DNA of 43,102 bases from Candidatus Kaiserbacteria bacterium (GTDB taxonomy: Bacteria > Patescibacteriota > Minisyncoccia > Phycocordibacterales > Phycocordibacteraceae), in the NCBI GenBank assembly GCA_023264445.1, contig JAHFMN010000004.1, positions 1 through 43,102 of the forward strand, given 5' to 3'. Below are positions 6,843-42,892 of this stretch, one piece after another; position 1 is the stretch's first letter, and each line of letters begins with the position of its first letter. Below the pieces are notes generated by a model, which saw only the letters and a program-made list of their open reading frames with translations, had not been told where the DNA came from and did not search any database. Both the position numbers and the translations under genes were made by a program.

Positions 6843-6868
6843 CCCTAAATGTGATATATTCTGCGAAT

Positions 6869-17328: not shown

Positions 17329-17994
17329 ATGTCACTCGTCACTCGAAACGCCCTCATAGCGCTTGGCATTACCATCCTCCTTTCGGGTACGGTCGCCTAC
17401 GCCGTCAACTATTTGAATAATGCGCGCATCACCGAACTCTCCGCTATAGAAGACCAGCTCTCAATCGATATTCTCTCCCTCGATACTCAATTTTCCCTGC
17501 TTGAAGCAGCACCCTGCGATAGTTCAACTTCTTCCACTACGCTCGTAAGTGAGCTCGCAGACATGGGCGATCGCCTCTCATATGCGGAGAGCCAGCTGGG
17601 TAGCGACAATGCACAAGTCATACGGCTTAAGGAACGATATTCTCTGCTTGAAATCCGTGACTACCTCATCACTAAGAAGCTTGCCGCTGCTTGTGGCTTG
17701 AAACCGGTAACCGTCCTGTATTTCTACAGCAACGCAGGAGACTGCGCCGACTGTGATAAGGCGGGTTATGCGCTCTCCTACCTGCACGACACCTTCCCGA
17801 ACTTGCGCGTCTATTCCTTTGACTATCACCTCACCATCGGTGCGCTTACCACCTTCATCGCTGTCAACAAAGTGCAGCCCTCTTTGCCTGCATTCATCAT
17901 CAACGGGAAACAATACTACGGCTTCACGACGCTTTCCGACCTCGAGAAGCAATTTCCAAAGGGCGCACTGTCTACGACAACCTCTTCACATTGA
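17329..17994 (+). CDS. Membrane-anchored hypothetical protein with a thioredoxin-like CxxC domain
   Basis: N-terminal TM helix, helical region, then YFYSNAGDCADCDKAGYAL...VYSFD...PAFIING. Begins 4 nt after the GT2 stop. Confidence 0.75.
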   Translation: MSLVTRNALIALGITILLSGTVAYAVNYLNNARITELSAIEDQLSIDILSLDTQFSLLEAAPCDSSTSSTTLVSELADMGDRLSYAESQLGSDNAQVIRLKERYSLLEIRDYLITKKLAAACGLKPVTVLYFYSNAGDCADCDKAGYALSYLHDTFPNLRVYSFDYHLTIGALTTFIAVNKVQPSLPAFIINGKQYYGFTTLSDLEKQFPKGALSTTTSSH

Positions 17995-18066
17995 GCCGGG
18001 GGTCGGGATTGAACCGACGACATCCTGTTTACAAAACAGGTGCTCTACCAACTGAGCTACCCCGGC
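17994..18066 (-). tRNA. tRNA-Thr(UGU), CCA not encoded
   Basis: GCCGGGG-TA-GCTC-AGTTGGTA-GAGC-A-CCTGT-TTTGTAA-ACAGG-ATGTC-GTCGG-TTCAATC-CCGAC-CCCCGGC-T; complete cloverleaf, anticodon TGT. Confidence 0.97.
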
Positions 18067-18163
18067 GAATGAGGGCACCTGGAAATGCAGGTCCTCATGC
18101 GTTTATATGTGTCCCGAACGAGCCGAGGGAAAGCCTGCATATAACGCTTACCCCGGCATTCCT

Positions 18164-18571
18164 CTACTGTATATCAGATATTTCGGGATGCGTCCCTTTC
18201 AACTGGCTCTTGAAATCCGCCAACGTCTTCACAAACTCTCTCACATTTTCGCGTGGAGCGATATCGGCCGTATGCCGAGAGCGCAGATGCCGGACCAAGC
18301 GTGTAAGCAGGCGCTCAGCAGCTCGCACTAGTTGGAGCGAGAGATGCGCAATATCGTGCCCGAGACGACTTCCGAGACGGCGTATTTCGTCGCGCACAAA
18401 CGCAACCAGGTCCACGTGTTCCATAATGAACGTAATGCGCGCAACCTGCTCATCGAGACGCGTGCGCTCCGCTGCCCACATGCGTGCACCGCGCCGCGTC
18501 TCATAGTCGGTCAGTAGGACGAAACCGACAAGAAGGGCGAGCGCGAGAACGATGCAGACAAGGTACGCCAT
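18164..18571 (-). CDS. Hypothetical protein with an N-terminal TM helix
   Basis: 135-aa ORF starting 5 nt after the tsf stop, same strand; hydrophobic N-terminus. Confidence 0.7.
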   Translation of the reverse strand: MAYLVCIVLALALLVGFVLLTDYETRRGARMWAAERTRLDEQVARITFIMEHVDLVAFVRDEIRRLGSRLGHDIAHLSLQLVRAAERLLTRLVRHLRSRHTADIAPRENVREFVKTLADFKSQLKGTHPEISDIQ

Positions 18572-21380: not shown

Positions 21381-23291
21381 TTAGAATTCTTGGAAGAATG
21401 GCTCGACGTTCACGGTCACCTGCCGCACGATTGCCGCGCCGCCGCCGGTTGGGGTGCAAGAGATGCTGTAGGTCGCCTGGCCAGTCACGATAATCGTTGC
21501 CGATCCAGATATGCTTGACTGCGAGAAACCGTTTGGACCAGTAACGTTGCAGCTACTCATCAGAACCGAGCTCCAGGAGAGAATGCTCGAACCGCCCGAC
21601 ACCGTCACGCGCGGCGGTTCCGCACCGATGTTCACCTCCGGCTGAATCACCGTTACGGTTACTTGCGCCGGTGCCGAGGTACCCGACGCATTTGAACAGG
21701 TTATTTGGTACGTTGAGTCCTGCAAGAGCACACCGGTCGAGACGCCGCCCGGAGGATTGGTTGTCGCACCGCCCGTCGAGAATCCTCCAGCCGACGTGCA
21801 GGAAGTCGCATTGGTAGATGACCAGAAGAGCTTGGTCGACTGGCCTTGATTTATGGGGTTCGGGCTTGCAGAGAGTGTCACAGTCGGCGGACAGGTGGAA
21901 TTGGATGGGACAGCAGCGGAGCAAGAACTGTCGCATTGAACCGTGCCGGTATTCGTCTGGCCGCATGAATTTGCTGCGGACGAACAAACAGCTCCTTGGT
22001 TCGCGACGCATAGCACCGTGACCACCTTCCATGCTCCGCAGTTGTTGCCCTCGTTAGACTCATCAATAGAACCGGCCCATGAACTGTTGTTGTCAGCGCA
22101 CGCGCGCACGTTGTAGGTACCGGCTGCTGTAAAGGTGTATGAGCCAGAAAGACCGGTGGAAGCGCCGGAGCTAAGGGAGGAGACGGTGTTGGCATTTACC
22201 ATCGCAATCGTCACCGTCTTGGCGCTGTTAGCAACCTGGAAGATGTTCGGGAAATTCGAGGCCGAACCATCACCGATATTGGAGACGGTTGCTGAGAAAG
22301 ACTCGCTTTGTCCGGCCACAACAGACGTGGGAGAAATAGTAGTATCCCCTGCCGTGAGATCAGCGAGCGAAACCGGGATCTGAACGCAGCCGGTTCCGTC
22401 TGCGCTCGGCTCCGTTCCTGATGGACAGGTAACCACGTGACTGATGGTCGCCGTGTTAGATGTTCCTCCGGGACCGGTACAAGTATTGCTCCAGGTGTAG
22501 GTCCCTGGATAGGTGGGTGTCGCTGGTAGTGAGCCAGAGGTTCCTGCTGCCCATGGATTGGTAACGAGACCGTCCGGACGCACTCTCGTTACCGTGCAGG
22601 ATGTTGCGTTCGTCGAGCTCCATGAGACGGTAAACGTTGTGCCGGAATCGGCGGTGCTAACTGATTGACTGATTGAGGCAGTCGGAGCCACACAACTCGA
22701 ATCGGACGGGGGTGTCGAAGAACATGAACCATCGCACTGGATAGTGCCGTTCGATTGCGTCTGGCCGCAAGAATTTGGTGAGGATGCACACGCGGAACCG
22801 TATCCGGCCGCACATGCTGGACTCACGTACACTGAGCACGTCTCCATACCAATGACGTCACTGCCACCCAACGAATACACCGATATTACTTTGTTTTGTG
22901 TACCAGAAGAACCATACACGTTCGTCTCGTAGGTGCGGTAGTACGGCTCGGCATCAATGTGGTATATACCGGCATTGATGCCCTGTAGGGAATACGGGTT
23001 CGTAACAGTCCACGTAACGGTATCACCGACTTTTGGATTTGTTGGCGAAACTGCACAGATCGCAGAGCACATGCCCGTACCCGCATTATGTTCGTAGCCG
23101 GATTCGCAGGAGGCTGGGACTATTACACCGCCTTCCGCCCCCCGAGGAGAAAGCGACACAAAGCCTACTTCAGAAGAATGTACCGGCGTATGGGCCAGCA
23201 TCAGGGACTGCAAGGAGCCGATAACGCCAAGAAAAAGCAGGAGCGACCCGAGAGATACCGCCAGTTGCCGAGTTCGCAGGCGAACCTTCAT
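21381..23291 (-). CDS. Large secreted/surface protein with a CARDB-like domain, two six-Cys repeats and several beta-rich Ig-like modules
   Basis: Start MKVRLRTRQLAVSLG (TM/signal). ADLTAG...SATVSNIG...IDESNEGNNC is CARDB-like. Repeats of the form C..N.G..C.S..NSCGQT..GT.QCD.SCS...P.(D/N)S.C. Confidence 0.85.
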   Translation of the reverse strand: MKVRLRTRQLAVSLGSLLLFLGVIGSLQSLMLAHTPVHSSEVGFVSLSPRGAEGGVIVPASCESGYEHNAGTGMCSAICAVSPTNPKVGDTVTWTVTNPYSLQGINAGIYHIDAEPYYRTYETNVYGSSGTQNKVISVYSLGGSDVIGMETCSVYVSPACAAGYGSACASSPNSCGQTQSNGTIQCDGSCSSTPPSDSSCVAPTASISQSVSTADSGTTFTVSWSSTNATSCTVTRVRPDGLVTNPWAAGTSGSLPATPTYPGTYTWSNTCTGPGGTSNTATISHVVTCPSGTEPSADGTGCVQIPVSLADLTAGDTTISPTSVVAGQSESFSATVSNIGDGSASNFPNIFQVANSAKTVTIAMVNANTVSSLSSGASTGLSGSYTFTAAGTYNVRACADNNSSWAGSIDESNEGNNCGAWKVVTVLCVANQGAVCSSAANSCGQTNTGTVQCDSSCSAAVPSNSTCPPTVTLSASPNPINQGQSTKLFWSSTNATSCTSAGGFSTGGATTNPPGGVSTGVLLQDSTYQITCSNASGTSAPAQVTVTVIQPEVNIGAEPPRVTVSGGSSILSWSSVLMSSCNVTGPNGFSQSSISGSATIIVTGQATYSISCTPTGGGAAIVRQVTVNVEPFFQEF

Positions 23292-23322
23292 AGGTTGTAT
23301 ACCCAAAAGGTACCACGCGCCT

Positions 23323-24132
23323 TCAGCTAGCACTGCCAGTATCCCCAGTAGAGAGGAGGCGCATATTCTCCTCAAGCGAGGACTTCATTTTCAAAAACCC
23401 TTCGGTGTAGATGTCCGGATTGTTCCCGGGATACGCAGCTCCCCAACTCGCTTCAGACATTGTGGCGAGTATGGAGAGCGCCTTAGCGAATGCCTCCTTC
23501 GCGCCTTTCTTATCATCCATGTTCAGGAGCGCGACGCCGAGCGAGTTCCACAGCCATGGATTGTTCGGCTCAATCTTGAGCCCTGTGCGCGCAGTATCGC
23601 GCGCCTCTGCATACTTCCCTTCTTGGAAATAAATCCACGCGAGATCATTATTTCCCGCCCAGCTCTCCGGCTTCCACGCCAGAAATGCTTTGAAATCCGC
23701 CTCTGCTTTTGCCAGCTGGCCGCTGTAGCCGTAAATGAGTCCGCGCACGTAATACGAGCGGCCGAAGTCCGGATGAAGAGCGAGTTCTGCATTTATTTCC
23801 GCGAGCGCATCGGGAAAATCGCTGCGGATAAAATAGACGCGCGCTAGCTGATAATGCGGGCCTTCCATACTCGGATCAAGCGTGAGCGCTTTGCGGAAAT
23901 ATGCTTCTGCTTTTTTTAAATCATACGCGCCACCACCGAAATAATAGTTCCCCATATCAAAAAAGAGATTCGGATCGGATGGAGAAAGGACCGAGGCGAG
24001 CATGCCCGCGTGCAGCTGTTGCCATACGAACCGACCGGCCGCCGCGTTCTGTCTTGCTACGAAAATGCTTGCTATACAGAGCCCAAGTACGAGGATGCTC
24101 CAGAGAAAGGCTTTTTTAATTTCCTGTCGCAT
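23323..24132 (-). CDS. TPR-repeat protein with an N-terminal membrane anchor
   Basis: Tandem TPR-like helices (AEAYFRKALTLDP, YYVRGLIYGYSGQLAKAEADF, WNSLGVALLNM). TAAGAT 6 nt upstream. Confidence 0.88.
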   Translation of the reverse strand: MRQEIKKAFLWSILVLGLCIASIFVARQNAAAGRFVWQQLHAGMLASVLSPSDPNLFFDMGNYYFGGGAYDLKKAEAYFRKALTLDPSMEGPHYQLARVYFIRSDFPDALAEINAELALHPDFGRSYYVRGLIYGYSGQLAKAEADFKAFLAWKPESWAGNNDLAWIYFQEGKYAEARDTARTGLKIEPNNPWLWNSLGVALLNMDDKKGAKEAFAKALSILATMSEASWGAAYPGNNPDIYTEGFLKMKSSLEENMRLLSTGDTGSAS

Positions 24133-24891: not shown

Positions 24892-25743
24892 ATGCCTGCT
24901 GTGCGTTTGCTGGCAATATTCATCCTCTTCGCCTTCTCCGGCAATGAGGCCCTCGCACAACAACTCCCCATATGGGAACAAGTATGGATTCCAACAAAAG
25001 AAAAGGAATTGTTCGGTAGGGAAAGCGATGTTCGACTTGACGCGGCGCTCTACCAACCGCAAGGAACCGCCCCATACCCACTTGTCATTTGGAACCACGG
25101 ATCGACCGGTGGTGATGCGTCTTTCGCGAAGGTATCAGCGCGTGCACCGCACATCGCTACCTTCTTCCTCTCCCGAGGTTTCGCGATGCTCGTGCCGATG
25201 CGAAGAGGCCGAGGCTCCTCAGGAGGTTATGACGGAGAAACGGATGGGGGTTCCTGCGATTTCGGGCGGTCAATGGCCGGCATCGAGCGGGCTATGGCAG
25301 ACATTGATGCCGCGCTTGCATACGCGAAAACGAGAGAGAACCTCGATACCTCCCGCCTCGTCATTGGAGGGATTTCTCGAGGTGGACTGCTCTCAGTCGC
25401 ATACACAGCCCGGCGCCCGGAACTCCGTGTCCTCGCAGTAGTGAATTTTTCTGGGGGCTGGACGGGAGATCGCTGTGCAAGCGACACAAACGGCGCGCTG
25501 TTGCAGAGTGGTGGTGCGAAGAATGTGCCGATGATCTTCCTCTACGGGGGGCGCGATGCAACTTACTCGGACGAATCCATCAGGCGGTACGCTGCGGGCT
25601 TCGAGAAATCTGGGGGAATCTTAGAATTCCAGTTGATTAAGAACGAGCTTCGTAACGGCCACTTCTTGTCTTCTGAACCGAAACTCTGGTTACCGCTCAT
25701 CACTCCCTTTTTCGAAAAGCTCGGTTATCCACGAAAGTTCTGA
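24892..25743 (+). CDS. Secreted alpha/beta hydrolase (dienelactone hydrolase / S9 peptidase-like)
   Basis: Signal peptide, VIWNHGSTG, MRRGRGSSGG, nucleophile elbow GISRGG, GGRD and C-terminal GH. AAGGAGGT RBS. Confidence 0.88.
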   Translation: MPAVRLLAIFILFAFSGNEALAQQLPIWEQVWIPTKEKELFGRESDVRLDAALYQPQGTAPYPLVIWNHGSTGGDASFAKVSARAPHIATFFLSRGFAMLVPMRRGRGSSGGYDGETDGGSCDFGRSMAGIERAMADIDAALAYAKTRENLDTSRLVIGGISRGGLLSVAYTARRPELRVLAVVNFSGGWTGDRCASDTNGALLQSGGAKNVPMIFLYGGRDATYSDESIRRYAAGFEKSGGILEFQLIKNELRNGHFLSSEPKLWLPLITPFFEKLGYPRKF

Positions 25744-25765: not shown

Positions 25766-25793
25766 AGCCGCTCCCCAGGGGCGGCTTTTTTAT
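25766..25793 (+). terminator. Rho-independent terminator
   Basis: agccgctcc-cca-ggggcggct followed by a T-run. Confidence 0.75.
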
Positions 25794-26902
25794 TTCTCTG
25801 AGAAATCTGATGATTTCCATCCAAGAGAGATGAGATACTTCTGGAAATCCAAATCTATTTGAGCCATCAAAACAAGAGATGATTTTGAAACGCTAAGTGC
25901 AGGATTACTGCGGGCGTTACGATAAAAACCAGGGATTGTTCTGGCAATTCCCGCTTCATTTCCGGCTTTAAAAGGGGCGAGGAGATTTTGTATATCTACT
26001 GCCCTTTTCTTCCCATACGCACTTGCCAGAAATGCGGCATAATTGAACGCATTGTAACTTCCCGGTCTGACCCCAATCAACGCATCGCGCTCCATCCCTT
26101 TCTGAAAATACGCTTCGGCATCCTCCATGGTGCCTATCCCAAGTGATGCGAGGCGCTGTAGAGCCATCCCCTCTCTCACGAGAACACTTGGTATGAAAAG
26201 AGCATCTACGGAATTATTCTCCATCCTTTTCAAATCAGAATCTGCCGCTTTCAGACTTTCTGAGATGCGTGCAAGATAGTCCTGTCCTTGCGGAGAGGTC
26301 GTTGCGCCACGCAGTGTCGTGATGAGTTCATTTGAGTATCCGTACGCAACGCGCGCTTCGCTCATTGCAAGCGGATATATGCTCGCTGCATACTCAAACA
26401 ACTTTGTATAGGCCAAGTTCACATTGCCGTCCTTCTTGAAAGAATCATAGGGTGAACCTTTAAATGTTTCTGCGAGAATCTTTTCTCGCACATCTTGCTC
26501 ATAATGAAGGTCACGCATTATACCGAGTTCCTGGACGGCATATGCTCGCAGTCCGTCGCGGTTAGAAGTGTCAGCAGCCACACTTTTATATTGAATGATT
26601 GCCTCCGTGTAGTTGCCAAGGAGTTGGTGCGCGGCCGCGATATCCAGCTGTATCTGGACCTTCTGTGCCTCATCAGATGCCTCCGTAAGTGACTTTTGAA
26701 AAGACTTCAATGCCAAATCATATTTACCTTGGTCAAAATAAGTCTGCGCCAAGGCATAGTCCTGATTCCTTGCCTTCAATACAGAAACCGGCGTTCTCGT
26801 CCCCGAGTATCCTGGGGTTTTTGAGGAATTGTACAAAAACCAGATAACAACAACAGCGAGAACTATTGCTAAGAGCAACAACCACCGGAGTACCTTATTC
26901 AT
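25790..26902 (-). CDS. Membrane-anchored TPR-like helical protein, probably co-transcribed with the RiPP precursor
   Basis: Start MNKVLRWLLLLAIV (TM), 14 nt after the precursor stop. TPR-like YALAQTYFDQGKYDLALKSFQKSL and IAAAHQLLGNYTEAIIQYKSV. Confidence 0.8.
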   Translation of the reverse strand: MNKVLRWLLLLAIVLAVVVIWFLYNSSKTPGYSGTRTPVSVLKARNQDYALAQTYFDQGKYDLALKSFQKSLTEASDEAQKVQIQLDIAAAHQLLGNYTEAIIQYKSVAADTSNRDGLRAYAVQELGIMRDLHYEQDVREKILAETFKGSPYDSFKKDGNVNLAYTKLFEYAASIYPLAMSEARVAYGYSNELITTLRGATTSPQGQDYLARISESLKAADSDLKRMENNSVDALFIPSVLVREGMALQRLASLGIGTMEDAEAYFQKGMERDALIGVRPGSYNAFNYAAFLASAYGKKRAVDIQNLLAPFKAGNEAGIARTIPGFYRNARSNPALSVSKSSLVLMAQIDLDFQKYLISLGWKSSDFSEK

Positions 26903-26916
26903 AGAGTCATTCTCAA

Positions 26917-27231
26917 TCACGCGAAACTGCAAGAGCTGCAAGAGCTGCAAGAGGCACCACCAGGACCAGCGGTACCGACGGAGCAACTAGAGCAACTGGT
27001 GCAACTGGTGCAACCTCCGGCGCAAGAGCCGGTTCCGCAGCCACCAGGAACATCGGCATGTGCGGTATTCTGTGTAAACAAATCTGCAGGCGAGGCACCA
27101 TTTCCTGAACCCCAGATTTTTGGAATGGTAGCAAAAAAGATGGCAAAAAAGCCGAATATGGCCGCAAAGGACCCCGACAGTCCCCGCAAGAATTTTCTTC
27201 CTTTACCGAAGGCGTACCGAGCCACAACCAT
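26917..27231 (-). CDS. Putative RiPP (azol(in)e-type) precursor: basic N-terminus, hydrophobic helix, AHA-D site, 45-aa Cys/Ser/Thr/Gly core
   Basis: MVVARYAFGKGRK...TAHA|DVPGGCGTGSCAGGCTSCTSCSSCSVGTAGPGGASCSSCSSCSFA. TG-G-TATACT 7 nt upstream; divergent from YcaO. Confidence 0.8.
   Translation of the reverse strand: MVVARYAFGKGRKFLRGLSGSFAAIFGFFAIFFATIPKIWGSGNGASPADLFTQNTAHADVPGGCGTGSCAGGCTSCTSCSSCSVGTAGPGGASCSSCSSCSFA
26927..27016. repeat. 9-bp tandem repeats encoding the Cys-x-x periodicity of the precursor core
   Basis: (ctgcaagag)x3 at 26927-26953; gagcaacta/gagcaactg/gtgcaactg/gtgcaacct at 26981-27016. Confidence 0.85.
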
Positions 27232-27313
27232 GCATGGAAGTATACCAAGCCACATTAAGTAGCGCGAAGGGAGTGTGGACAAGAAGTGGCATGGCGCTGG
27301 TATCATCAGACCC
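27232..27313. promoter_or_regulatory. Divergent promoter between the precursor and YcaO-1
   Basis: TGG-TATACT (-, 27239-27247) and TGG-TATCAT (+, 27298-27306), each 7 nt before an ATG. Confidence 0.6.
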
Positions 27314-28753
27314 ATGTTGAAAGAGGTCGCTCCATTTGAGCGTGTATGGCTTGCCTTGCATGGCTCATCTTACGTTGCGAAAGCTATTGTCTCATTCATA
27401 AAGTTCTTAGAACGGCATCTCGGCGCTGAATTCATATATGACCAAAAACATATTGGGTATCAATCCCTTGAATTGGCGAAATTATTTGAACTTGCCGAGA
27501 CACTCCGGACACGCGGCATTATTCAGTCATACGGGAAAAATGAAGATCTAAGCGATGAACCACGAATTGCGTTTTGGTATATTAAATATCTTGATAACAA
27601 AAATGATGGGTCTGCTGGAGTATCCATGGATGATCATCCGCTGGCATTTACCAAGGCGCTTGCGGAGGCCATTGAACGACGTGTATGGACCCTGAACGAT
27701 CGGTTTGCGTCCCTGAAAATCGCCACAACTGCTGAAGCTGAGGGAAACAAAAAGTTTATATCTCCTCAACGCTTTGCCGGTTATAGTATTTCACAACGGG
27801 AAAAGGACCCATCTCTGACAATCAAGTCGACTGATTCATTTACTTGGGTTAAAGGCTACTCCTGGGTGGAAGAAAGACAGGTGTGGATTCCATTACAGAT
27901 TGTGAGCGTCAATGGAGGTCAAACTCAATCGAAAGAACCTCGTATTCGCGCAACAATAACAACTGGCATTGCGACACATCCACTTCGAATACGCGCCCTT
28001 CTTTCTGGCGCATTAGAAGTCATCGAACGTGATGCGTATATCATCACCTGGCTTAACCAGCTATCGCCGCCACGCATTGATATCGATGAATTATCAGAGA
28101 GGAGCAAATCACTCGCCCAACTCATTGCGCGATGCCGGCGCTATCGCCTTCTGCCTCATGTACTCCAGCTCCCCACCGATGCCCCGACGTATGCAGTCTG
28201 TGCCGTGATTGAGGACGCGACGGGAACGGCTCCTCGATTTTCCTTCGGCACCAAGGCAGATCGTGACCCAGCGGCTGCAGCAGAAGGAGCGCTCCTTGAG
28301 GCGCTCCGCACGCGTATAGGCACGCGGCGACAATTCATGTCAGATCATGATGATTGGGATCCGAATACACCCCTTACCGAAATTTCTGGCTATAAACGCA
28401 TGAGGTACTGGTCCGAGGGAGACCGTATGAATCATCTCTCCTTCCTTATCCAAGGGGAAATCCTTCCGCTTGTAAAAGAAGAGTGGGATTCCGACACTGA
28501 TGAGGAACACTTCTCAAGAATTATACGATGGTGTCGAAAACAAAAGTATGAGCTTGTGTCAGTGAGTTATACAGATGCCTTGGACAACTTACCCGGCTGG
28601 CACATAGAGTTCGTCGTCATTCCAGAACTTCAGCCCCTCCATTACAGTGAAAAACTATTGTGTCTTGGGGGAGAACGATTGAAGGAGATTCCGCGACAAT
28701 TTGGATACCCTGCGCGAGAACCTTATCTTAGTGATCCTCATCCTTTCGTATAA
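27314..28753 (+). CDS. YcaO-family protein 1 (azoline-forming cyclodehydratase type)
   Basis: KALAEAIERR, TTGIATH...SGALEVIERDA, EGALLEAL, C-terminal PHPFV. Start placed at MLKEVAPF. Confidence 0.92.
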   Translation: MLKEVAPFERVWLALHGSSYVAKAIVSFIKFLERHLGAEFIYDQKHIGYQSLELAKLFELAETLRTRGIIQSYGKNEDLSDEPRIAFWYIKYLDNKNDGSAGVSMDDHPLAFTKALAEAIERRVWTLNDRFASLKIATTAEAEGNKKFISPQRFAGYSISQREKDPSLTIKSTDSFTWVKGYSWVEERQVWIPLQIVSVNGGQTQSKEPRIRATITTGIATHPLRIRALLSGALEVIERDAYIITWLNQLSPPRIDIDELSERSKSLAQLIARCRRYRLLPHVLQLPTDAPTYAVCAVIEDATGTAPRFSFGTKADRDPAAAAEGALLEALRTRIGTRRQFMSDHDDWDPNTPLTEISGYKRMRYWSEGDRMNHLSFLIQGEILPLVKEEWDSDTDEEHFSRIIRWCRKQKYELVSVSYTDALDNLPGWHIEFVVIPELQPLHYSEKLLCLGGERLKEIPRQFGYPAREPYLSDPHPFV

Positions 28754-28755
28754 CT

Positions 28756-29484
28756 ATGAACGCCCTTTCGAGATTCATTGCACGCATTCATGCCTCTATA
28801 CGAGGAGTGGACATGGCGCCACACGGAGTACCTCTACGAGAAAAAGAAGTTCCTCGAGGTCTGCATAAAGAATATCCGCGCATGCCGCGCATTGAGCTTC
28901 CTGCACCAGAAACATTAACTCTTCCACTCAGTGAAGCACTGCACAACCGCGCATCATTCTCCGTGTGCGAAGATAGTCGACAGTTCTCATCGGGAGAATT
29001 AGGTTCGCTACTCGGAAATGCACTTGGCATGCGCACCGCTATGCGACGGCAGTACCCTTCGGGTGGAGGCCTTTTCCCGATCGAGACATATCTCATCGGG
29101 ACAGTGCTTGAAAGGTATCCATCCGGGGTATTTCACTATCATCCCAAGGCCCATGCACTCGAATTTTTATGGGAAACTTCCCCTTCATTTACTATGGCGG
29201 AAATCATCCGGGCTGGTGACACACCGTTCGCACCTATTCTTGTCATATTCACCAGCGTATGGAGCCGCTCCAGCGTAAAATACGCCGAGCTTGCATACGC
29301 GCATGGTCTCATTGAGGCCGGTCATATGGCCGAAAACATATTGCTCGCGGCAACTGCTCTCGGAATACATGCTCGGCCATTGGCCGGATTCTACGACGAA
29401 GCAGTCAGTACGCTGCTTGATCTTCCGAAGGATATAGAACAACCGGTATACGGCGTCCTTCTCTGTCCGTCGGCAATGCCTTGA
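28756..29484 (+). CDS. SagB/ThcOx-type FMN-dependent azoline dehydrogenase 1
   Basis: RRQYPSGGGLFPIETY, GVFHYHP..HAL, the Lys-Tyr pair in SVKYAE, IEAGHMAENI. Confidence 0.92.
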   Translation: MNALSRFIARIHASIRGVDMAPHGVPLREKEVPRGLHKEYPRMPRIELPAPETLTLPLSEALHNRASFSVCEDSRQFSSGELGSLLGNALGMRTAMRRQYPSGGGLFPIETYLIGTVLERYPSGVFHYHPKAHALEFLWETSPSFTMAEIIRAGDTPFAPILVIFTSVWSRSSVKYAELAYAHGLIEAGHMAENILLAATALGIHARPLAGFYDEAVSTLLDLPKDIEQPVYGVLLCPSAMP

Positions 29485-30275
29485 TGCTAGAATGCGTACC
29501 GTACATGGTTCCACGTCTTTCATATCTTATCTGTACCACTCCCCGATCAGGTAGCAATCTTCTCTGCACGACTCTCTGGCAAACCGGGATTGCGGGACGG
29601 CCACAGGAATACTTCATGCCAGGGCTCCGCGATGAATTCATCCGGTATGCCCAACTCGGTGTGAGTGAGCATCCGGATTATGTACGCGCCGTTATCCGCG
29701 CCTCGACCACTCCAAACGGTATCTTCGGAACAAGTGTACATGCTTTCCAAACTGCACTCGTCATGAAGCGGATACAGCATGCAGAAGGCAAGGAGTTTTT
29801 TTCATTTCGAGAAGCAGTAGAAACTGCATTTCCGAACATCAAGTACATCTTTTTAACACGAGTAGACAAGGTCGCACAGGCCGTTTCCTATTATCGGGCA
29901 GTCATGACCGGAGAATGGCGACGCTTCAGCGATGAACACATTCCCGAGTCTAATAAAACTATCAAGATGGACCACTATGGCATTAAAAAATGCCTTGAGT
30001 TGCTCGAACAATCGGATGCTTATTGGGAAAAATTCTTTGAGGAACACGAACTGTCCCCGTTGCGGATTACTTTTGAAGATCTCACACGGAAGTATGGAAA
30101 GACCGTTCAGAATATTCTCTCCTATCTTGAGCTTCCTGCCGTCCCTATACCCCCTCCGGCAACAAAGAAAATTTCAGACGAACGTTCCAAATCCTGGGAA
30201 GAAGAATTTATACAACTTGAAAAAAAGAACCCCATACACACCGAGCCGACTAACTACGCATGGGCACCGTTTTAA
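29484..30275 (+). CDS. Stf0-family PAPS-dependent sulfotransferase
   Basis: YLICTTPRSGSNLLC (5'-PSB loop), GRPQEYF, FLTRVDKVAQAVSY (3'-PB). ATG overlaps the SagB-1 TGA; alternative start 29505. Confidence 0.9.
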   Translation: MLECVPYMVPRLSYLICTTPRSGSNLLCTTLWQTGIAGRPQEYFMPGLRDEFIRYAQLGVSEHPDYVRAVIRASTTPNGIFGTSVHAFQTALVMKRIQHAEGKEFFSFREAVETAFPNIKYIFLTRVDKVAQAVSYYRAVMTGEWRRFSDEHIPESNKTIKMDHYGIKKCLELLEQSDAYWEKFFEEHELSPLRITFEDLTRKYGKTVQNILSYLELPAVPIPPPATKKISDERSKSWEEEFIQLEKKNPIHTEPTNYAWAPF

Positions 30276-30283
30276 TGGAGTAC

Positions 30284-31030
30284 TTATTTTGAAAGCATAA
30301 GCGCATACACGAGTGATTCCTGTGTGCCATCAATATCAAGAAGAGAATGGAGGGCTTCATCCTGCGTTCCTCCCATTCCGGTAACACCGACACCACACGG
30401 AGCTGCCGAAAGATACATCCCTTGCCCAATGTGCCCAGCTTCGAGCAATACGTAGCGGTACGCTCGCTCACCATATTTCATGGCCGTGCGGTTAAACACC
30501 GCAGTAACGAGTACCGCCATGGAACAATCCTTTGCCCACGGATAGGTGAACATCTGCAAAATGTCTTGGCTTGAAAAAGCACGGACGCGCAATACATTGA
30601 GTGCGTGTTCTTTGACATTGAAATGATATACACCCGGCGCGATTCCATTTTCTTTCTTAAGAGATAGCACATATACTTCAAGTGGAAACCGCATACCCCC
30701 AGAAGGTTGCGCTCGAAGTTTTACTCCACTTGTATGCCGCACGGTATCTTGAAGCCCGCAAGAATATTTCAGTATTGCTGAAAGATCGGCAATGGAAATC
30801 CCATGTTCATGTGCCCCATTCACTGATTTTCTATTGGCGACGATGTCAAAAAAATTTGTGGGTGGAGGCGCCGTTTTTGTGAGCGGTATTGTGCGGACCC
30901 CCGCATAGGATTTGTAATAAATTGTCTTCCATTCTTTCGGCCAATCTTCAGTTCGCTGGAATAAGCGAGAGTCAGTTCCTGCCGCATGATCGGCACTTCT
31001 TCTGTGGTATTGGTGAAAAAAAAATGGCAT
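30284..31030 (-). CDS. SagB/ThcOx-type FMN-dependent azoline dehydrogenase 2
   Basis: LRAQPSGGMRFPLEVY, GVYHFNVKEHAL, AMKYGERAYRY, LEAGHIGQ. Start MPFFFH chosen; 31084 is possible. Confidence 0.92.
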   Translation of the reverse strand: MPFFFHQYHRRSADHAAGTDSRLFQRTEDWPKEWKTIYYKSYAGVRTIPLTKTAPPPTNFFDIVANRKSVNGAHEHGISIADLSAILKYSCGLQDTVRHTSGVKLRAQPSGGMRFPLEVYVLSLKKENGIAPGVYHFNVKEHALNVLRVRAFSSQDILQMFTYPWAKDCSMAVLVTAVFNRTAMKYGERAYRYVLLEAGHIGQGMYLSAAPCGVGVTGMGGTQDEALHSLLDIDGTQESLVYALMLSK

Positions 31031-31046
31031 GGAAATGTGTCGGTTG

Positions 31047-32627
31047 CTACGGGAACGGGTGTGGAATGGGATTATACGCATCAATTGGTACCGCAGTGTA
31101 GCCTAGTTTCCCTGGAACCTCCCGCAAACGAACGCAATCAAGAAGAGCATCGCTCTCTCGTAAGTACAGAGGCATGAGGGCTGGAATAATAACTTTCACG
31201 ACATGGTAATTGAGATCCCCAAGAACGGGATTCGAAGCCTCATGACAAAACACCTCATATGCTCGACCGGATTCTTTTTCCATGCGAATGAACTCGCTCA
31301 AGACGCGCGTGAGTGCGGCTTTGTGATTACTTGGTATTGAAGGGAACCCGCTTGCCCACTGCTCGAATGAAATCTTTTCTCCTGAGAGGAAAAAAAGAAT
31401 TTTATTAGCTATTTTTCCCGATCTCCACAAGTTTACTCGCTCGTCTTTTCCGATGTTCCTGTCAGAAAATGCCGCGCGTTCCTCATCGAAAACAAACAGA
31501 GGGAGTTCCTTATACGGCGAACTTAGAAAGGCAATATGCTCAAGAAGAGCTCCTTCAAGAACATGATGAGGGTCCGGGTGGCACTTCCCTGTTACACTTA
31601 TAGATATTCTCCCGTCTGTAAGCGGGGTGCGAATAAGACATGTCGCTGATGGCACACGTATATCCGATGTCGTATCAAGAAAATATATCTCGTATCCACG
31701 ATCCAAAAGCGAACCATATATCTCAAGGAAACGCTGAGAAAGTTTCCCAGAGTTGTGCTGATCAATGCAAATCTGCCGGGGCGAAAGCCGATTAAGCCAG
31801 TAAATGAGGAATCCGTCGCGTTCAATGAGTTCACATATACCCGACAGAGCGGCTTCAGTTAAAGAAAATCCACCACCCGCACCATTTGTCGTCCTCGGCG
31901 AGAAGATATACGGATCAGGGCCATATGTTCCGCTGTATGGTAGCCCCCATTGAACATGCTGGAGCGGCAACGATATTTTCTTCCCCGTACTCAATGACTG
32001 CCCTTCAATGCAGTGGACGGGCGTATTTTTTATCTCCTTTTTTTTAAGTACTCCACTGGTCAGACCGTTCGGAACATATTTCTTCTGCCAATCAAAAAAA
32101 CGTGGAATTTCATGCAGGAGTGCGGGTGGAATTTTTGTATCCCCAAATGTTCTCCTGATAATCTTATTTTTCTGATTAAAAAATGGGGTAGCGAGGACAT
32201 GCCGCTCGAGAAGTTCACCTATGGACTTAGAGAGTGCTTCGGTAAATGAATGATACGAGGCTCCGCCTCCATACAGCGGGGTGTGTTGTGAATCTCGTAT
32301 ATGTTCTTCATTCCCATTGATACGAATATGGTGAGTCTTCGGCACTGTGTTGCGTATTAACGATGGAGTTGGCGTCATTCCATTCGATATTTTTTTCTTC
32401 GCTAAGTACACCAATACATCGCCAAATCGAGACCGCTCTATTTCTCGAGAAACGCCGACAGGAGTCGGGTCCGGCAGCTCCACTTTTCCAAAAAATCTTG
32501 CGGAAATTCGGGAACGGATGCGGGACCATGTTTCAACATTTCCATAACGACAATTCCCTTCGTTGCGCAGTTCATCGAACACCTTCCACGGTATATAGGG
32601 TTGATGAGTGAACTCCTCCTCGTACAT
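31047..32627 (-). CDS. YcaO-family protein 2 (azoline-forming cyclodehydratase type)
   Basis: KSIGELLERH, TTNGAGGG...SGICELIERDG, EGALLEH, C-terminal NPIPHPFP (PxPxP). Start MYEEEF after TG-T-TATATT and AAAGGT. Confidence 0.92.
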   Translation of the reverse strand: MYEEEFTHQPYIPWKVFDELRNEGNCRYGNVETWSRIRSRISARFFGKVELPDPTPVGVSREIERSRFGDVLVYLAKKKISNGMTPTPSLIRNTVPKTHHIRINGNEEHIRDSQHTPLYGGGASYHSFTEALSKSIGELLERHVLATPFFNQKNKIIRRTFGDTKIPPALLHEIPRFFDWQKKYVPNGLTSGVLKKKEIKNTPVHCIEGQSLSTGKKISLPLQHVQWGLPYSGTYGPDPYIFSPRTTNGAGGGFSLTEAALSGICELIERDGFLIYWLNRLSPRQICIDQHNSGKLSQRFLEIYGSLLDRGYEIYFLDTTSDIRVPSATCLIRTPLTDGRISISVTGKCHPDPHHVLEGALLEHIAFLSSPYKELPLFVFDEERAAFSDRNIGKDERVNLWRSGKIANKILFFLSGEKISFEQWASGFPSIPSNHKAALTRVLSEFIRMEKESGRAYEVFCHEASNPVLGDLNYHVVKVIIPALMPLYLRESDALLDCVRLREVPGKLGYTAVPIDAYNPIPHPFP

Positions 32628-40040: not shown

Positions 40041-41049
40041 GCGTGGCGAGAAGCACGTGGCGCACGAGCGACTCCGTATACCCCATCTCGTTATCATACC
40101 AAGCGAGCACCTTCACGAGCGTACCGTCTACCACGCGGGTCATACTAAGATCCGCGATGGAAGCATAGGGTTCGCCGACGATATCGCTTGAAACGAGGCC
40201 TTCGTCGGTCGCGCTGAAGATACCCTCCCAGCGTGGCGCCGCTGCGGCGCCACGCAACGCTCCGTTCACCTCCTCAACCGTCGTAGGACGCTTCGCAATG
40301 AACGTGATATCGGCGATGGACCCTGCCACGACCGGCACGCGCAGACTGATGCCGTCAAACTTGCCCGCAAGTTCCGGATACGCCTCCGTTACCGCTATCG
40401 CAGCACCGGTCGTCGTCGGGACGATGTTCTGCGCTGCTGCCCTGCCCTCCTTCATATCCTTTCTTGAGGGACCATCCACGATAGACTGGCTCGCCGTGTA
40501 CGCATGCGTGGTCGAGAGAATCGCCTTTTCGATGCCGATGGCTTCATCAAGGATATGGATGAGCGGGCTTGCGGAGTTCGTCGTGCAAGAAGCATTGCTC
40601 GTTATCTGGCACGTCTTAAACCGCTCTTCGTTCAGGCCCATGAGCACGGTCGCGCCGGGTCCGTCAGTCGGCGAATGCCCTTTCACCGGTGCGGTAATGA
40701 CCACACGCTTCGCGCCGGCCGTAATGTGCACCTGCGCTTTCTCATAATCAGTAAAAAATCCGGTGGACTCCACGACGACATCAATCTGGAGATCTTTCCA
40801 CGGAAGACTCGCGGGGTCCTTCTCCGAAAAAAACTTCACCTCTTTCCCATCCAGCACGAGCGCGTCATCTTTCGCTTCCACCGAGAACGGCGCCCGGCCA
40901 TATACCGTGTCGTACTTCAGGAGGTAGGCGAGATTCTCAAGTGAACCCAGATCATTCACTGCGACAATCTCGATGCCGCGATTCTGGGAGCGGCGCGCGA
41001 ACGCCCGCCCGATGCGACCGAACCCGTTGATAGCGACGCGAATAGCCAT
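40033..41049 (-). CDS. gap: Glyceraldehyde-3-phosphate dehydrogenase (type I)
   Basis: INGFGRIGR, VVESTG, SNASCTTN, AAAQNIVPTTTGAA, WYDNEMGY. Confidence 0.97.
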   Translation of the reverse strand: MAIRVAINGFGRIGRAFARRSQNRGIEIVAVNDLGSLENLAYLLKYDTVYGRAPFSVEAKDDALVLDGKEVKFFSEKDPASLPWKDLQIDVVVESTGFFTDYEKAQVHITAGAKRVVITAPVKGHSPTDGPGATVLMGLNEERFKTCQITSNASCTTNSASPLIHILDEAIGIEKAILSTTHAYTASQSIVDGPSRKDMKEGRAAAQNIVPTTTGAAIAVTEAYPELAGKFDGISLRVPVVAGSIADITFIAKRPTTVEEVNGALRGAAAAPRWEGIFSATDEGLVSSDIVGEPYASIADLSMTRVVDGTLVKVLAWYDNEMGYTESLVRHVLLATHA

Positions 41050-41115
41050 AGGTAAAGAATGTAAATAAAAGGTTTTGAAAATGAGCTGTAACCCCTTTAT
41101 TGTACCCTATATAAA

Positions 41116-41280
41116 CTGCCCACTGCGTTTCAAGACTGCGGTGACGATGTCCCGAAGTTAGAACCTATTAGGTCGCTTCATTACACTCGTGTTGATAAAA
41201 TTGTACGTGATTTAAGGCGAATTTACAAGGAAAATCCGGCCTATTTTGACGTTCCGGCTTTTGCACAGAAGGTCTACTAG
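41116..41280 (+). pseudogene. Start-less or CTG-initiated small ORF homologous to 42469-42651
   Basis: Frame reads ...GDDVPKLEPIRSLHYTRVDKIVRDLRRIYKENPAYFDVPAFAQKVY*. No ATG before the upstream in-frame stop. Confidence 0.5.
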
Positions 41281-41329
41281 GACCGGATTCCCGCAAGCTT
41301 TAGCGATTATTTCTCCCCTCGAGCCTCCT
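41225..41329. repeat. Direct repeat copy 1 (105 bp)
   Basis: Matches 42596-42700 with 4 mismatches; the first 65 nt are identical. Confidence 0.95.
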
Positions 41330-41903: not shown

Positions 41904-41940
41904 ATGTATTTTTTATTAGTGAACTTTTGATAATGAGGCA

Positions 41941-42887: not shown

Positions 42888-42892
42888 AGTGG

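Follow-up and report, generated by a model that had tools for sequence, protein, structure and literature searches.

A probable partner-less TOMM/LAP-type peptide pathway with a conserved, membrane-targeted precursor family in Parcubacteria

The characterised LAPs, such as microcin B17, streptolysin S, plantazolicin and klebsazolicin, are toxins or antibiotics, and azoline-forming YcaO enzymes normally need an E1-like or Ocin-ThiF partner with an RRE. LAP clusters have already been reported from CPR bacteria (110 in 93 CPR genomes, 51 of them Parcubacteria; Sharrar et al. 2020), so the surprise voiced in the initial annotation at meeting such a pathway in this group is outdated. The cluster investigated here lies in a stretch of 43,102 nucleotides from a Candidatus Kaiserbacteria contig (the window); the module it exemplifies occurs across Parcubacteria. 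Judging from sequence comparisons, we think that it probably encodes a thiazole/oxazole (TOMM/LAP) pathway for a ribosomal peptide, in a variant form that works without the usual partner.

ORF calls and domain models verified the coordinates and strands of the seven-gene block (Table 1). The precursor gene and TPR-A are divergent from YcaO1-SagB1-Stf0, which in turn converge on SagB2-YcaO2 across an 8-bp gap, as first described. The reported AT-richness of the block is also real (47.8% GC versus 54.5% in the remaining window). GC3 is 43-49% in all seven block genes. Of the 27 genes on the flanks, 26 have 51-69%, and only the one for an aminoacyl-tRNA synthetase (6851-8092) is lower, at 47%; the low GC3 common to the seven genes was counted in favor of the unity of the block. 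Because cluster genes match their flanks in 32 homologous loci (median GC difference -0.004, extremes -0.038 and +0.042), the difference of -0.067 in the window is exceptional. The region between the precursor and YcaO1 genes is presumed to be a bidirectional promoter site; a scan of this region for the sigma-70 consensus gave no promoter match. The hairpin at the left edge is a candidate terminator common to TPR-A and the convergent hydrolase gene. For SagB2, the downstream ATG is likely the true start and would give a protein of 248 aa, as in its homologues.

Table 1. Features of the gene block and its surroundings in the window
Feature	Position	Strand	Basis
TPR-B, second TM+TPR protein	23323..24132	-	Pfam TPR families
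GC-rich hairpin followed by T-run, left block edge	25766..25786	+	9-pair stem, 7 G-C pairs, then TTTTTATTTC
TPR-A, N-terminal TM helix and TPR repeats	25790..26908	-	Pfam TPR_1/TPR_12, residues 77-135
Precursor gene, small Cys/Ser-rich ORF, 104 aa, start MVVARY	26917..27231 including stop codon	-	leader HMM match, E 9e-18
Core peptide, 44 aa, VPGGCGTGSCAGGCTSCTSCSSCSVGTAGPGGASCSSCSSCSFA	26920..27051	-	C-terminal part of precursor
AHAD junction motif, residues 57-60 (TAHADVP in window)	27052..27063	-	junction counts; alignments A3, A4
Hydrophobic segment of precursor, about residues 18-37, LSGSFAAIFGFFAIFFATIP	27121..27180	-	family hydropathy statistics
Divergent intergenic region precursor/YcaO1, 82 bp	27232..27313		gene coordinates
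YcaO1, 479 aa	27314..28753	+	PF02624 E 4e-42; TIGR03604 E 3e-57; start as called in protein collection (P0001)
SagB1	28756..29484	+	TIGR03605, 107 bits (cutoff 78)
Stf0	29484..30275	+	PF09037, 151 bits (cutoff 22)
SagB2	30284..31084, probable start ATG at 31030	-	TIGR03605, 123 bits
YcaO2, 526 aa	31047..32627	-	PF02624 E 2e-37; TIGR03604 E 7e-46

The SagD azoline-forming model TIGR03604 spans both YcaO proteins end to end, whereas the thioamidation model TIGR03266 (E 2.5e-14 for YcaO1 and 7.5e-9 for YcaO2) and the E. coli-type model TIGR00702 are far weaker on both. The two proteins end in the proline-rich motifs PHPFV and PHPFP, and a proline-rich C-terminus characterises azoline-forming YcaOs (PMC8442711). 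ExxER motifs, of which YcaO1 has two, are invariant in 25 YcaO1 and 29 YcaO2 homologues, respectively, and the AF2 model of YcaO1 (pLDDT 90) finds the heterocyclases LynD, MusD and TruD as its best PDB folds. YcaO1 is thus predicted to be a cyclodehydratase-type YcaO with no fused E1-like domain. SagB1, whose homologue adjoins that of YcaO1 in about 50 loci, appears to be an FMN-dependent dehydrogenase of the SagB/McbC type; the Lys-Tyr pair is kept in SagB1 (in VKYAELAY) and in SagB2 (in MKYGERAYRY). Searches with PF02624, TIGR03605 and PF09037 bore out the YcaO, SagB and Stf0 identities.

An alternative explanation is that the YcaOs perform thioamidation, or amidine or macroamidine formation, on the same precursor, and that the nitroreductase-fold proteins are used otherwise. 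Like the thioamidating archaeal YcaOs and those of bottromycin, the two enzymes are partner-less; their SagD-model scores (194 and 157 bits) fall below the NCBI curated cutoff of 219, and the best sequence match among solved structures is the Methanopyrus kandleri YcaO 6CI7 (E 1.3e-6), a thioamide-forming enzyme. The rhodanese that recurs in 11 loci might act as a sulfur carrier; however, it bears an N-terminal TM segment, and TfuA was not found in the window. Both YcaOs score best on the SagD family, and for YcaO1 the E-values of this and the thioamidation model lie more than 40 orders of magnitude apart; a SagB with the catalytic Lys-Tyr pair invariably adjoins YcaO. With the proline-rich C-terminus and the heterocyclase folds matched by the predicted structure also speaking against it, we consider a different chemistry highly unlikely.

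The catalytic pair had been described as duplicated. Two pairs are present, but the second is not a recent duplicate: the YcaOs share 26% identity and the SagBs 32%. YcaO2 belongs to a lineage of its own with about 50 CPR proteins, and these comparisons indicate that the two YcaO-SagB pairs are old paralogous lineages, each with its own precursor/TPR loci elsewhere.

The precursor protein is matched by none of the Pfam and NCBIfam models. Searched against 1.84 billion representatives, a profile of its N-terminal part, the leader, matched 148 protein clusters; only one of these is not a short protein, and in most of them the match begins at or near the N-terminus. By this measure the small ORF is a real gene and a member of a conserved family. 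Its members share a basic N-terminus, a TM helix, a linker of about 20 residues that leads to a near-invariant (V/I)AHAD(A/V)P junction and, beyond it, a hypervariable tail. The segment LSGSFAAIFGFFAIFFATIP is read as a signal-anchor or transmembrane helix: in the family (n=130) the best 17-mer has a mean Kyte-Doolittle hydropathy of 2.35, and the net charge is +3 before the helix and -5.5 (median) after the junction. In alignment A4 the Gly of the GFF in this helix is invariant, and in A3 nearly so. The membrane segment attributed to the precursor in the initial annotation is therefore kept, with its basic N-terminus, across the family.

Forms of the junction include VAHADAP (41), IAHADAP (15) and VAHADVP (7). 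We presume that the AHAD motif marks the boundary between leader and core, and it is a candidate Ala-X-Ala cleavage site, as AHA followed by D agrees with the rule for signal peptidase. However, AHA lies at a median of 21 residues past the best hydrophobic 17-mer, a distance that was counted against cleavage, the c-region of a classical signal peptide being much shorter. Beyond the junction, the window core contains 9 Cys, 12 Ser and 4 Thr in dense runs and no Asp. Family tails consist of 30% G, 18% S, 11.5% D, 10% A and 9% C; Cys is absent from 18 of 137 tails, and a few of the listed tails are too short for a core or lack Cys, Ser and Thr.

The homologous loci compared for gene set and precursor include about 50 from Parcubacteria in which the small ORF stands head-to-head with a YcaO-SagB pair and directly upstream of a TM+TPR gene. 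Among the 51 CPR loci fetched via YcaO1, about 35 have a match to the leader HMM within 150 bp of the YcaO1 homologue, mostly on the opposite strand. Conversely, of members picked by the leader alone, two of the three whose contigs had enough flank to judge have a head-to-head YcaO-nitroreductase pair. The linkage, which is almost always head-to-head, holds for two different YcaO lineages. Together with the conserved precursor family and the enzyme identities, gene neighborhoods strongly support the small ORF as substrate of an adjacent TOMM/LAP-type ribosomal peptide pathway.

Tail composition points in the same direction. Tails encoded beside YcaO1-type enzymes are Cys-rich and those beside YcaO2-type enzymes Cys-poor and Ser-rich: Cys makes up 15% in YcaO1-only loci (n=45) versus 0.9% in YcaO2-only loci (Mann-Whitney p=1e-4, a value that ignores phylogenetic kinship and includes only six YcaO2-only loci). 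In the two loci with both pairs the tails have 14% Cys and 38% Ser+Thr. This contrast hints at a division of labour, in which the YcaO1/SagB1 lineage would most likely act on Cys to give thiazoles and the YcaO2/SagB2 lineage on Ser/Thr to give (methyl)oxazoles.

One could nevertheless assume that the small AHAD protein belongs, with its TPR partners, to an envelope module independent of YcaO, with YcaO/SagB acting on another substrate or only loosely coupled. The peptide would then be a membrane-tethered, acidic, Gly/Ser/Asp/Cys-rich one, for example a cation-, metal- or redox-binding surface brush. The Asp content and negative charge of the tails and those without Cys fit this assumption, as do the recurrent neighbours, which besides the rhodanese include DsbA-like proteins (10 loci), Cys-rich secreted proteins and a thioredoxin/AhpC protein. 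The module is moreover near-universal and syntenic across Parcubacteria, near ribosomal protein operons, which we read as vertical inheritance and which is unlike the typical, sporadic bacteriocin clusters. At one locus (L163) the small ORF is accompanied by TPR-A, TPR-B and a polytopic membrane protein, whereas YcaO is missing from the 6 kb on one flank and the roughly 2 kb on the other, but this locus may be a decayed copy because its tail has only 8 residues (APYGQASY). The head-to-head linkage in roughly 50 loci and two YcaO lineages speaks against independence, and without an enzyme-substrate relation it is difficult to see why tail Cys should follow the YcaO lineage. YcaOs act on peptide backbones, and there is no other conserved candidate substrate nearby. 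We regard independence from YcaO as improbable.

TPR-A starts 8 nt past the stop codon of the precursor gene, and the two are probably co-transcribed. Homologues of TPR-A directly follow the small ORF in 36 loci and are present also in YcaO2-type loci; the flanking charges leave the membrane topology of TPR-A ambiguous. TPR-B, kept in 28 loci (32% identity to the L048 representative), adjoins TPR-A in relatives, whereas two inserted genes separate them in the window.

The sulfotransferase noted initially is a genuine Stf0-domain protein but not a regular member of the cluster, as only 4 of about 50 other loci have Stf0 within 8 kb, and a PRTase/beta-propeller gene takes its position in the closest relatives. 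Its ATG overlaps the SagB1 stop codon (TGATG), read as translational coupling, and its GC3 is as low as in the remaining block. Its alignment to chain 1TEX (287 residues) covers residues 27-277 of that chain in two stretches and retains the RSGS loop; the protein reaches 144 bits against the 400-bit cutoff of the trehalose 2-sulfotransferase equivalog. The window contains no PAPS genes, and synthesis of this sulfotransferase donor is not known from CPR bacteria. Stf0 is a rare accessory gene of the module.

As had been observed initially, window annotation reveals no E1-like partner, ABC exporter, CAAX protein or leader protease. Among window ORFs of 150 aa or more that were judged plausible, several of which have no Pfam match at all, Pfam annotation revealed neither an ABC exporter nor a CAAX protease, an E1/ThiF-like gene or TfuA. 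Nor did the window, the recurrent neighbours or a fold search with the YcaO1 N-terminus yield an E1-like or RRE partner; the 112 N-terminal residues have no significant PDB match (best E 0.24). The TOMM/LAP reading of the initial annotation stands, but not the completeness of the pathway, which is not established because the leader-binding partner was not found.

In the partner-less pathway that we favor, the N-terminal half of the precursor would serve as signal-anchor-like leader and its C-terminal 44 residues as core. Cytoplasmic YcaO1 and YcaO2 would cyclodehydrate Cys and Ser/Thr at the expense of ATP, and SagB1 and SagB2 would oxidise the resulting azolines with FMN to azoles. The modified, still linear peptide may then be inserted or exported by the general Sec/YidC route via its own hydrophobic leader, the tail remaining tethered outside the membrane or being released after AHA by type I signal peptidase. 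TPR-A may be a dedicated accessory protein (a scaffold or a chaperone), and Stf0 an optional tailoring enzyme that O-sulfates a leftover hydroxyl group.

The same azole chemistry could yield, in line with the initial annotation, a classical antagonistic LAP, i.e., a secreted toxin or antibiotic that poisons gyrase, ribosome or membrane of the host bacterium or of competitors. Known LAPs, phazolicin included, are of this kind, hypervariable cores are typical of arms-race peptides, the window core has dense modifiable runs without Asp, and the window copy looks laterally replaced from its GC3 and GC relative to the flanks. However, domain annotation of the window finds no immunity gene, dedicated exporter or leader protease, the module is not strain-specific, and most tails are strongly acidic and of low complexity, which suggests that composition outweighs exact sequence. 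As a full account of the locus this is unlikely. As to role, the initial annotation suggested use against the host cell or attachment to it; lineage-wide synteny and the acidic low-complexity tails speak at least equally for an envelope or metal-related role and lead us to rate an envelope or metal-binding function, itself tentative, slightly above that of an antagonistic toxin, which we hold possible but somewhat doubtful.

Compared with known systems, the family tails resemble in composition the core of microcin B17, which is Gly-rich with Gly-Cys and Gly-Ser, and the dense Cys/Ser/Thr runs of the window core recall streptolysin S and plantazolicin. Bufferins provide a precedent for RiPP precursors with a Sec signal (PMC11626156). 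Three features seem to be previously undescribed: the family of membrane-targeted precursors, the TPR protein that accompanies them and the apparent absence of a leader-binding partner.

The seven genes of the block at 25790-32627 are listed in the table below. The six-frame ORF list and the Pfam and NCBIfam scans bear out the gene map of the initial annotation, and its YcaO, SagB and Stf0 domain calls all find their match (PF02624, TIGR03605 and PF09037). YcaO1, SagB1 and a Stf0-family sulfotransferase are divergent from a small ORF, the presumed substrate, and from TPR-A, a protein with a transmembrane (TM) helix and TPRs; 82 bp lie between the small ORF and YcaO1, and 8 bp separate the convergent ends of Stf0 and SagB2. 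A longer form of YcaO1 with a GTG start was set aside, as it has no exact record and the database gene call begins at 27314.

Genes of the block, in order along the window
Gene	Product	Coordinates	Strand	Remark
TPR-A	TM+TPR protein	25790-26908	-	Begins 8 nt past the stop of the small ORF
Small ORF	104 aa	26917-27231	-	Start MVVARY; from the ORF list
YcaO1	YcaO protein	27314-28753	+	Start as in protein collection entry P0001
SagB1	SagB protein	28756-29484	+	Same strand, after YcaO1
Stf0	Stf0-family sulfotransferase	29484-30275	+	ATG overlaps the SagB1 stop codon
SagB2	SagB protein	30284-31084	-	Start probably 31030
YcaO2	YcaO protein	31047-32627	-	With SagB2, converging on YcaO1-SagB1-Stf0

Judged by their motifs and profile scores, both enzyme pairs (pair 1, YcaO1 with SagB1; pair 2, YcaO2 with SagB2) look like competent azole synthetases. 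The two YcaOs are above the cutoff of PF02624, and the best NCBIfam match of each is the SagD model TIGR03604, aligned end to end with 194 and 157 bits, below the curated cutoff of 219. The thioamidation model TIGR03266 scores far lower than the SagD model (53 and 35 bits against a cutoff of 365). By HMM scores the YcaOs are thus set apart from the TfuA-type model, and also from the E. coli-type one (YcaO kinase domain), and no TfuA is encoded in the window; the azoline-type function that the initial annotation assigned to them agrees with this placement. Azoline-forming YcaOs are recognisable by a proline-rich C-terminus (PMC8442711), and here one protein ends in PHPFV and the other in PHPFP. 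Both ExxER motifs are invariant across 25 homologues of YcaO1 and 29 of YcaO2. The closest folds to the AF2 model of YcaO1 (pLDDT 90) are the cyanobactin heterocyclases LynD, MusD and TruD, followed by archaeal YcaOs, E. coli YcaO and McbD. SagB1 and SagB2 exceed the TIGR03605 cutoff of 78.4 bits (106.7 and 123.2 bits), and their mutually aligned segments VKYAELAY and MKYGERAYRY contain the Lys-Tyr pair that serves as a criterion for SagB/McbC-type dehydrogenases (PMC8442711). Among the features expected of a LAP cluster, the locus has an azoline-type YcaO, a SagB with Lys-Tyr, and an adjacent precursor gene whose leader is conserved and whose core is rich in Cys, Ser and Thr.

Searches with YcaO1 returned more than 150 homologues, the best 64% identical, and all of those listed with organism names come from Parcubacteria-group MAGs (Minisyncoccia, Paceibacterota, Kaiserbacteria, Magasanikiibacteriota and Pacebacteria). 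A contig of a close relative (L167) carries an aldolase fragment 81% identical to that of the window and has the SLT-L25-aldolase flank in common with it. Because of these two observations, we consider the CPR assignment of the window sound.

The recurrence of the small ORF across genomes marks it as a genuine gene and a member of a conserved family. A scan with the YcaO1 profile over one genome per GTDB species found 77 loci, about 51 of them from CPR; as a rule, the opposite strand upstream of YcaO1 carries a small ORF (about 32 loci under a first composition filter). An HMM of the leader, the N-terminal part with the TM helix up to the AHAD junction, detected 56 copies in 51 loci, the window and YcaO2-type loci included. 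A leader-only profile matched 148 clusters at E<=1e-3 among 1.84 billion representative proteins; all but one of the matches are 49-250 aa long, and the leader mostly lies at or near the N-terminus. Every database homologue is labelled 'hypothetical protein' and has no Pfam domain. At E<=0.01 the small ORF had no match in Pfam or NCBIfam, known TOMM precursor models included, and among the curated NCBIfam/TIGRFAM models it matches none of the heterocycloanthracin/sonorensin, NHLP, Nif11 and SagA-like families.

The family begins with a basic N-terminus (median net charge +3). Next come a strongly hydrophobic helix, in which the Gly of a GFF context is near-invariant, and a linker that spans a median of 21 residues between the best 17-mer and the junction. 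The junction reads VAHADAP in 41 clusters and IAHADAP in 15, the rest being close variants. The tails beyond it are hypervariable and of low complexity (median 35 residues, net charge -5.5; G 30%, S 18%, D 11.5%, A 10%, C 9%), and 39 of 137 have Lys as their final residue. In the window, Cys, Ser and Thr make up 57% of an Asp-free core and form contiguous runs. When members were picked by the leader alone, two of the three with enough flanking sequence showed a head-to-head YcaO-nitroreductase pair, with TPR-A and then TPR-B, another TM+TPR protein, beyond it. The third locus (L163) has TPR-A, TPR-B, a polytopic membrane protein and a tail of just 8 residues, and no YcaO lies within 6 kb on one side or about 2 kb on the other.

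Several members depart from the simple arrangement. Two or three AHAD-type precursors occur within 15 kb in several genomes, some with doubled YcaO1-SagB1 pairs or TPR-A (for example L018:6037-6312, 7543-7884 and 14455-14784; L013:7627-8043 and 12798-13193; L047:330-662 and 7114-7452), and in many tails Tyr-rich APYSQASYY(G/A)QGSY motifs precede the Cys/Ser part. The database proteins P0274 (247 aa; L165:1056-1799) and P0333 (226 aa) have an AHAD leader and a Gly/Ser/Cys tail, beyond which the chain runs on into an additional conserved domain, C-terminal and about 110 aa long (KIICTEMFRQGKL...WYEADERFG...), that contains hydrophobic segments and has no Pfam match; they represent either a fusion or read-through of the precursor into a downstream gene. 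The top match of the leader profile, through the junction part only, is P0205 (1272 aa), which has 22 repeats with GGPNVAQADAPLQLAP; it is probably an unrelated repeat protein, though the identity of the motif is striking.

The hallmark of a canonical TOMM synthetase, a partner or fused domain with an RRE, was not detected here. No E1-like/Ocin-ThiF-like partner was found among the genes of the window or among the families that recur in the 51 loci. YcaO1 carries about 105 residues ahead of the Pfam YcaO domain, and an RRE in this region was considered; however, the best Pfam match of residues 1-119, to a KIN17 winged helix, stayed below threshold (E 0.022), and no PDB fold matched the AF2 model of residues 1-112 (pLDDT 86) at an E-value under 0.2. 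The weak fold matches were to a dsRBD-like alpha-beta3-alpha arrangement and, for the second half of this YcaO1 region, to part of E. coli YcaO. Since both searches came up short, no RRE can be claimed for this N-terminus. Partner-less YcaOs are known from bottromycin biosynthesis (PMC8442711). Candidates for leader recognition are TPR-A and the N-termini of the SagBs; Lys and Arg flanking the TM helix of TPR-A are more numerous before it in 15 proteins and after it in 11, with 12 ties, and the TPR domain may lie in the cytoplasm, as a scaffold for the enzymes, or outside.

The catalytic pair had been described in the initial annotation as duplicated. We find instead two lineages: YcaO1 and YcaO2 are 26% identical and SagB1 and SagB2 32%, and a separate family with separate loci exists for either lineage. 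A recent tandem duplication is rejected on these grounds. The YcaO2 family comprises about 50 CPR proteins, and YcaO2-SagB2 pairs are found at about 40 metagenome loci; on long enough contigs, these loci include an AHAD-type small ORF of their own, with a TPR-A homologue after it. Where YcaO2 occurs without YcaO1, the tails are poor in Cys and rich in Ser, Gly and Asp (e.g., DSGDSGDS repeats). The median Cys content of the tail is 0.9% at YcaO2-only loci (n=6) versus 15% at YcaO1-only loci (n=45; Mann-Whitney p = 1e-4, kinship among loci ignored). Both pairs are present in the window and at one other locus (L041), and the tails there contain 14% Cys and 38% Ser+Thr. Because of the difference in tail Cys between YcaO1-only and YcaO2-only loci, we propose, from few independent loci, that pair 1 may be Cys-selective and pair 2 Ser/Thr-selective.

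Across the CPR loci retrieved with the YcaO1 profile, YcaO1-SagB1 is nearly always intact. TPR-B, whose counterpart in the window is at 23323-24132, occurs in 28 loci fetched via YcaO1, and a fusion of a PRTase with a PQQ-type beta-propeller directly follows SagB1 in 27. Other recurrent neighbours are a rhodanese (11 loci), a DsbA-like protein (10), a polytopic membrane protein (9), a Cys-rich secreted protein (9) and the S10 ribosomal protein operon. The polytopic protein (430-470 aa, no Pfam match; L163:4487-5884, L078:8485-9780, L026:10198-11568) adjoins the small ORF/TPR module even in the YcaO-less L163, and the recurrent secreted protein has 405-430 aa (L078:12355-13626, L080:6032-7324). 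In the two closest relatives of the window, TPR-B, rhodanese, TPR-A and precursor diverge from YcaO1, SagB1 and PRTase/beta-propeller, with SLT, L25 and aldolase further on. The window has the same flanks, with Stf0-SagB2-YcaO2 in the place of the beta-propeller gene and two unrelated genes in the position of the rhodanese. The PRTase-like/PQQ-BamB-type fusion (roughly 550 aa; L012:10153-11811 is representative, with L166:6998-8632 and L167:2547-4184) is found in YcaO2-type loci too and is missing from the window. The fusion possibly belongs to the regular gene set of the module, and the window would then have lost it or exchanged it for Stf0 and pair 2.

The GC content of the block is 47.8%, versus 54.5% elsewhere in the window, and GC3 is 43-49% in all seven of its genes versus 51-69% in all but one of the 27 flanking genes. 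One could assume that AT-richness is a general trait of these genes; however, in 32 loci and in both close relatives the GC of the homologous cluster is like that of its flanks. For this reason, the most plausible reading of the AT-rich block is a lateral replacement, in which the incoming copy would have carried Stf0 and pair 2 with it. Two other stretches of the window are equally AT-rich, a class II aminoacyl-tRNA synthetase gene at 6851-8092 (47.0% GC, GC3 47%) and the last 2 kb (41001-43102, about 48% GC), so low GC is not unique to the cluster within the contig.

Stf0 matches PF09037 at 151 bits (cutoff 22). Against the trehalose 2-sulfotransferase equivalog it scores 144 bits with a cutoff of 400, which argues that it is not the trehalose enzyme. 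It belongs to the same Pfam family as mycobacterial Stf0 (PDB 1TEX) and conserves the RSGS PAPS-binding loop; of the 287 residues of the 1TEX chain, 27-277 are covered by the alignment, in two stretches. Unlike the mycobacterial enzyme, the Stf0 of the window shares an operon with a peptide dehydrogenase. Just four other loci have a Stf0 homologue within 8 kb, and in two of them it is beside an AMP-binding-like protein.

The remainder of the window is ordinary chromosome, encoding DnaE, GyrB, PheS, EF-Ts, ribosomal proteins S2 and L25, a release factor, a class I aldolase, transketolase, GAPDH and a sortase (11255-11917). Its Pfam-annotated ORFs include no ABC exporter, CAAX protease, ThiF/E1-like protein, TfuA, MNIO or PAPS-synthesis gene. 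The sole find of tRNA and Rfam scans for island boundaries was a tRNA-Thr(TGT) at 17993-18066 (minus strand); as it overlaps the 5' end of a mechanically called ORF (17991-18506, plus strand), that ORF, if real, starts further downstream. A sigma-70-like promoter scan, uninformative for a CPR organism, gave fewer sites than shuffles and none in the divergent intergenic region. An alpha/beta-hydrolase at 24892-25743 was considered as a leader peptidase; its S9/S15 matches are weak, its GC is host-like, it is absent from other loci, and it is probably unrelated to the cluster. Adjoining TPR-B is a gene for a Cys-rich secreted CARDB/Ig-like protein (21381-23375, minus strand) that ends in FFQEF. 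The last residues of its counterparts (L009:1638-2660, L080:469-1149) are IFQEL or IFEEQ, and this hints that the C-terminal motif is conserved, possibly as a sorting signal.

The YcaO and SagB enzymes lack signal and TM segments and need ATP and FMN, which places them in the cytoplasm. There they would modify the tail of the roughly 100-aa precursor post-translationally, and the modified precursor would be inserted or exported through the general secretion machinery by means of its own leader, in an N-in, C-out orientation predicted from the charge distribution. The product would be kept as a tethered peptide or cut after AHA by type I signal peptidase. Such a cut would fit the Ala-X-Ala rule of this peptidase; the distance from the helix to AHA is atypically long, which makes cleavage the weakest link of the scheme.

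As for the role of the product, we lean slightly towards an envelope or metal-related function, to which the near-universal syntenic conservation, the acidic low-complexity tails and the thiol-redox neighbours would point. A toxin would be compatible with the hypervariable cores and with the dense Cys/Ser/Thr content and lack of Asp in the core of the window. CPR bacteria (Patescibacteria), which make up a large share of bacterial diversity, combine tiny genomes with a presumed life attached to other cells; to our knowledge, very few of their lineage-specific functions are understood. The module is retained across many Parcubacteria orders with its chromosomal position conserved, and because at least four genes are kept in genomes stripped of most biosynthesis, its product probably matters to the way of life of these organisms. 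On a broader and rather doubtful reading, the module would be a vertically inherited, lineage-wide trait of Parcubacteria and a new RiPP class, not a sporadic antibiotic cluster, with a signal-anchor leader, YcaOs that work without an RRE or E1-like partner, and two ancient chemoselective lineages, making thiazoles from Cys and oxazoles from Ser/Thr; TPR-A or the GFF helix may serve for recognition at the membrane. If this were the case, these episymbionts would display or release a polyazole, polyanionic surface peptide for metal handling, envelope function or host contact. Three features of the module are unusual for peptide natural-product biochemistry: a predicted azole synthetase that has no recognisable leader-binding partner, a leader that doubles as membrane-targeting segment, previously documented mainly for bufferins, and two naturally paired YcaO/SagB lineages that differ in the Cys versus Ser content of their presumed substrates.

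Among known systems, the block resembles that of microcin B17 in the combination of a YcaO (McbD) with a SagB-type Lys-Tyr dehydrogenase (McbC). The microcin core is Gly-rich with Gly-Cys and Gly-Ser, and McbB is reportedly an obligatory E1-like partner that binds the leader. Here, in contrast, no such partner was found, there is no exporter, and the leader is a TM segment; the McbA leader is soluble and 26 aa long, and McbA leaves the cell through a dedicated ABC transporter. The streptolysin S and plantazolicin clusters are similar in their best models (SagD, TIGR03604; SagB, TIGR03605) and in core runs of Cys/Ser/Thr; they differ in that the YcaOs here score below the SagD cutoff and no known TOMM precursor model matches, and the 43-kb window has no SagC-like partner, SagE CAAX protease/immunity protein, SagFGHI ABC export system or methyltransferase. 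Bottromycin has a single heterocycle and a follower peptide, and we know of no SagB-type dehydrogenase pairing in its pathway. Its stand-alone YcaOs likewise have no E1-like partner, and one of them forms a thiazoline (PMC8442711), although they come from a different phylum and are unrelated in sequence detail.

In bufferins (PMC11626156), Cys residues become heterocycles while the precursor is still cytoplasmic; Sec export and cleavage by signal peptidase come afterwards, and the product has a physiological metal-binding role. Bufferins thus establish this order of steps as a real RiPP route. The sole resemblance is the precursor's own N-terminal hydrophobic targeting segment with an AxA site: bufferin enzymes are an MNIO with a DUF2063 partner that make 5-thiooxazoles, neither MNIO (DUF692) nor DUF2063 is found in the window, bufferin cores fold as small proteins, and bufferin signal peptides are classical, whereas the AHA site of the window lies about 20 residues past the TM segment.

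A literature search for sulfotransferases in YcaO clusters and for work on Parcubacteria YcaOs yielded only Sharrar et al. 2020 (mBio, PMC7298704) and a 2025 census that again notes LAP clusters in CPR. We found no account in the searchable literature of the TM/AHAD family, the TPR partners, the missing RRE partner or the Stf0 accessory gene, no description of two lineages with differing core composition, and no biochemical work on a CPR YcaO. PMC7298704 is an antiSMASH-level census, illustrated by a Microgenomates cluster that has a peptidase and a precursor of 84 aa, and its passages on these clusters mention neither the TM/AHAD precursor, the TPR partners and the two YcaO lineages nor the missing RRE partner and Stf0. 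They do report 110 LAP clusters in 93 CPR genomes, 51 of them Parcubacteria. The cluster proposed in the initial annotation is solidly real, and such a pathway in CPR is less surprising than was judged there. Like the window, the clusters described there have a YcaO beside a nitroreductase-fold gene and a small Cys/Ser-rich ORF, and by that description the window cluster almost certainly belongs to the same population.
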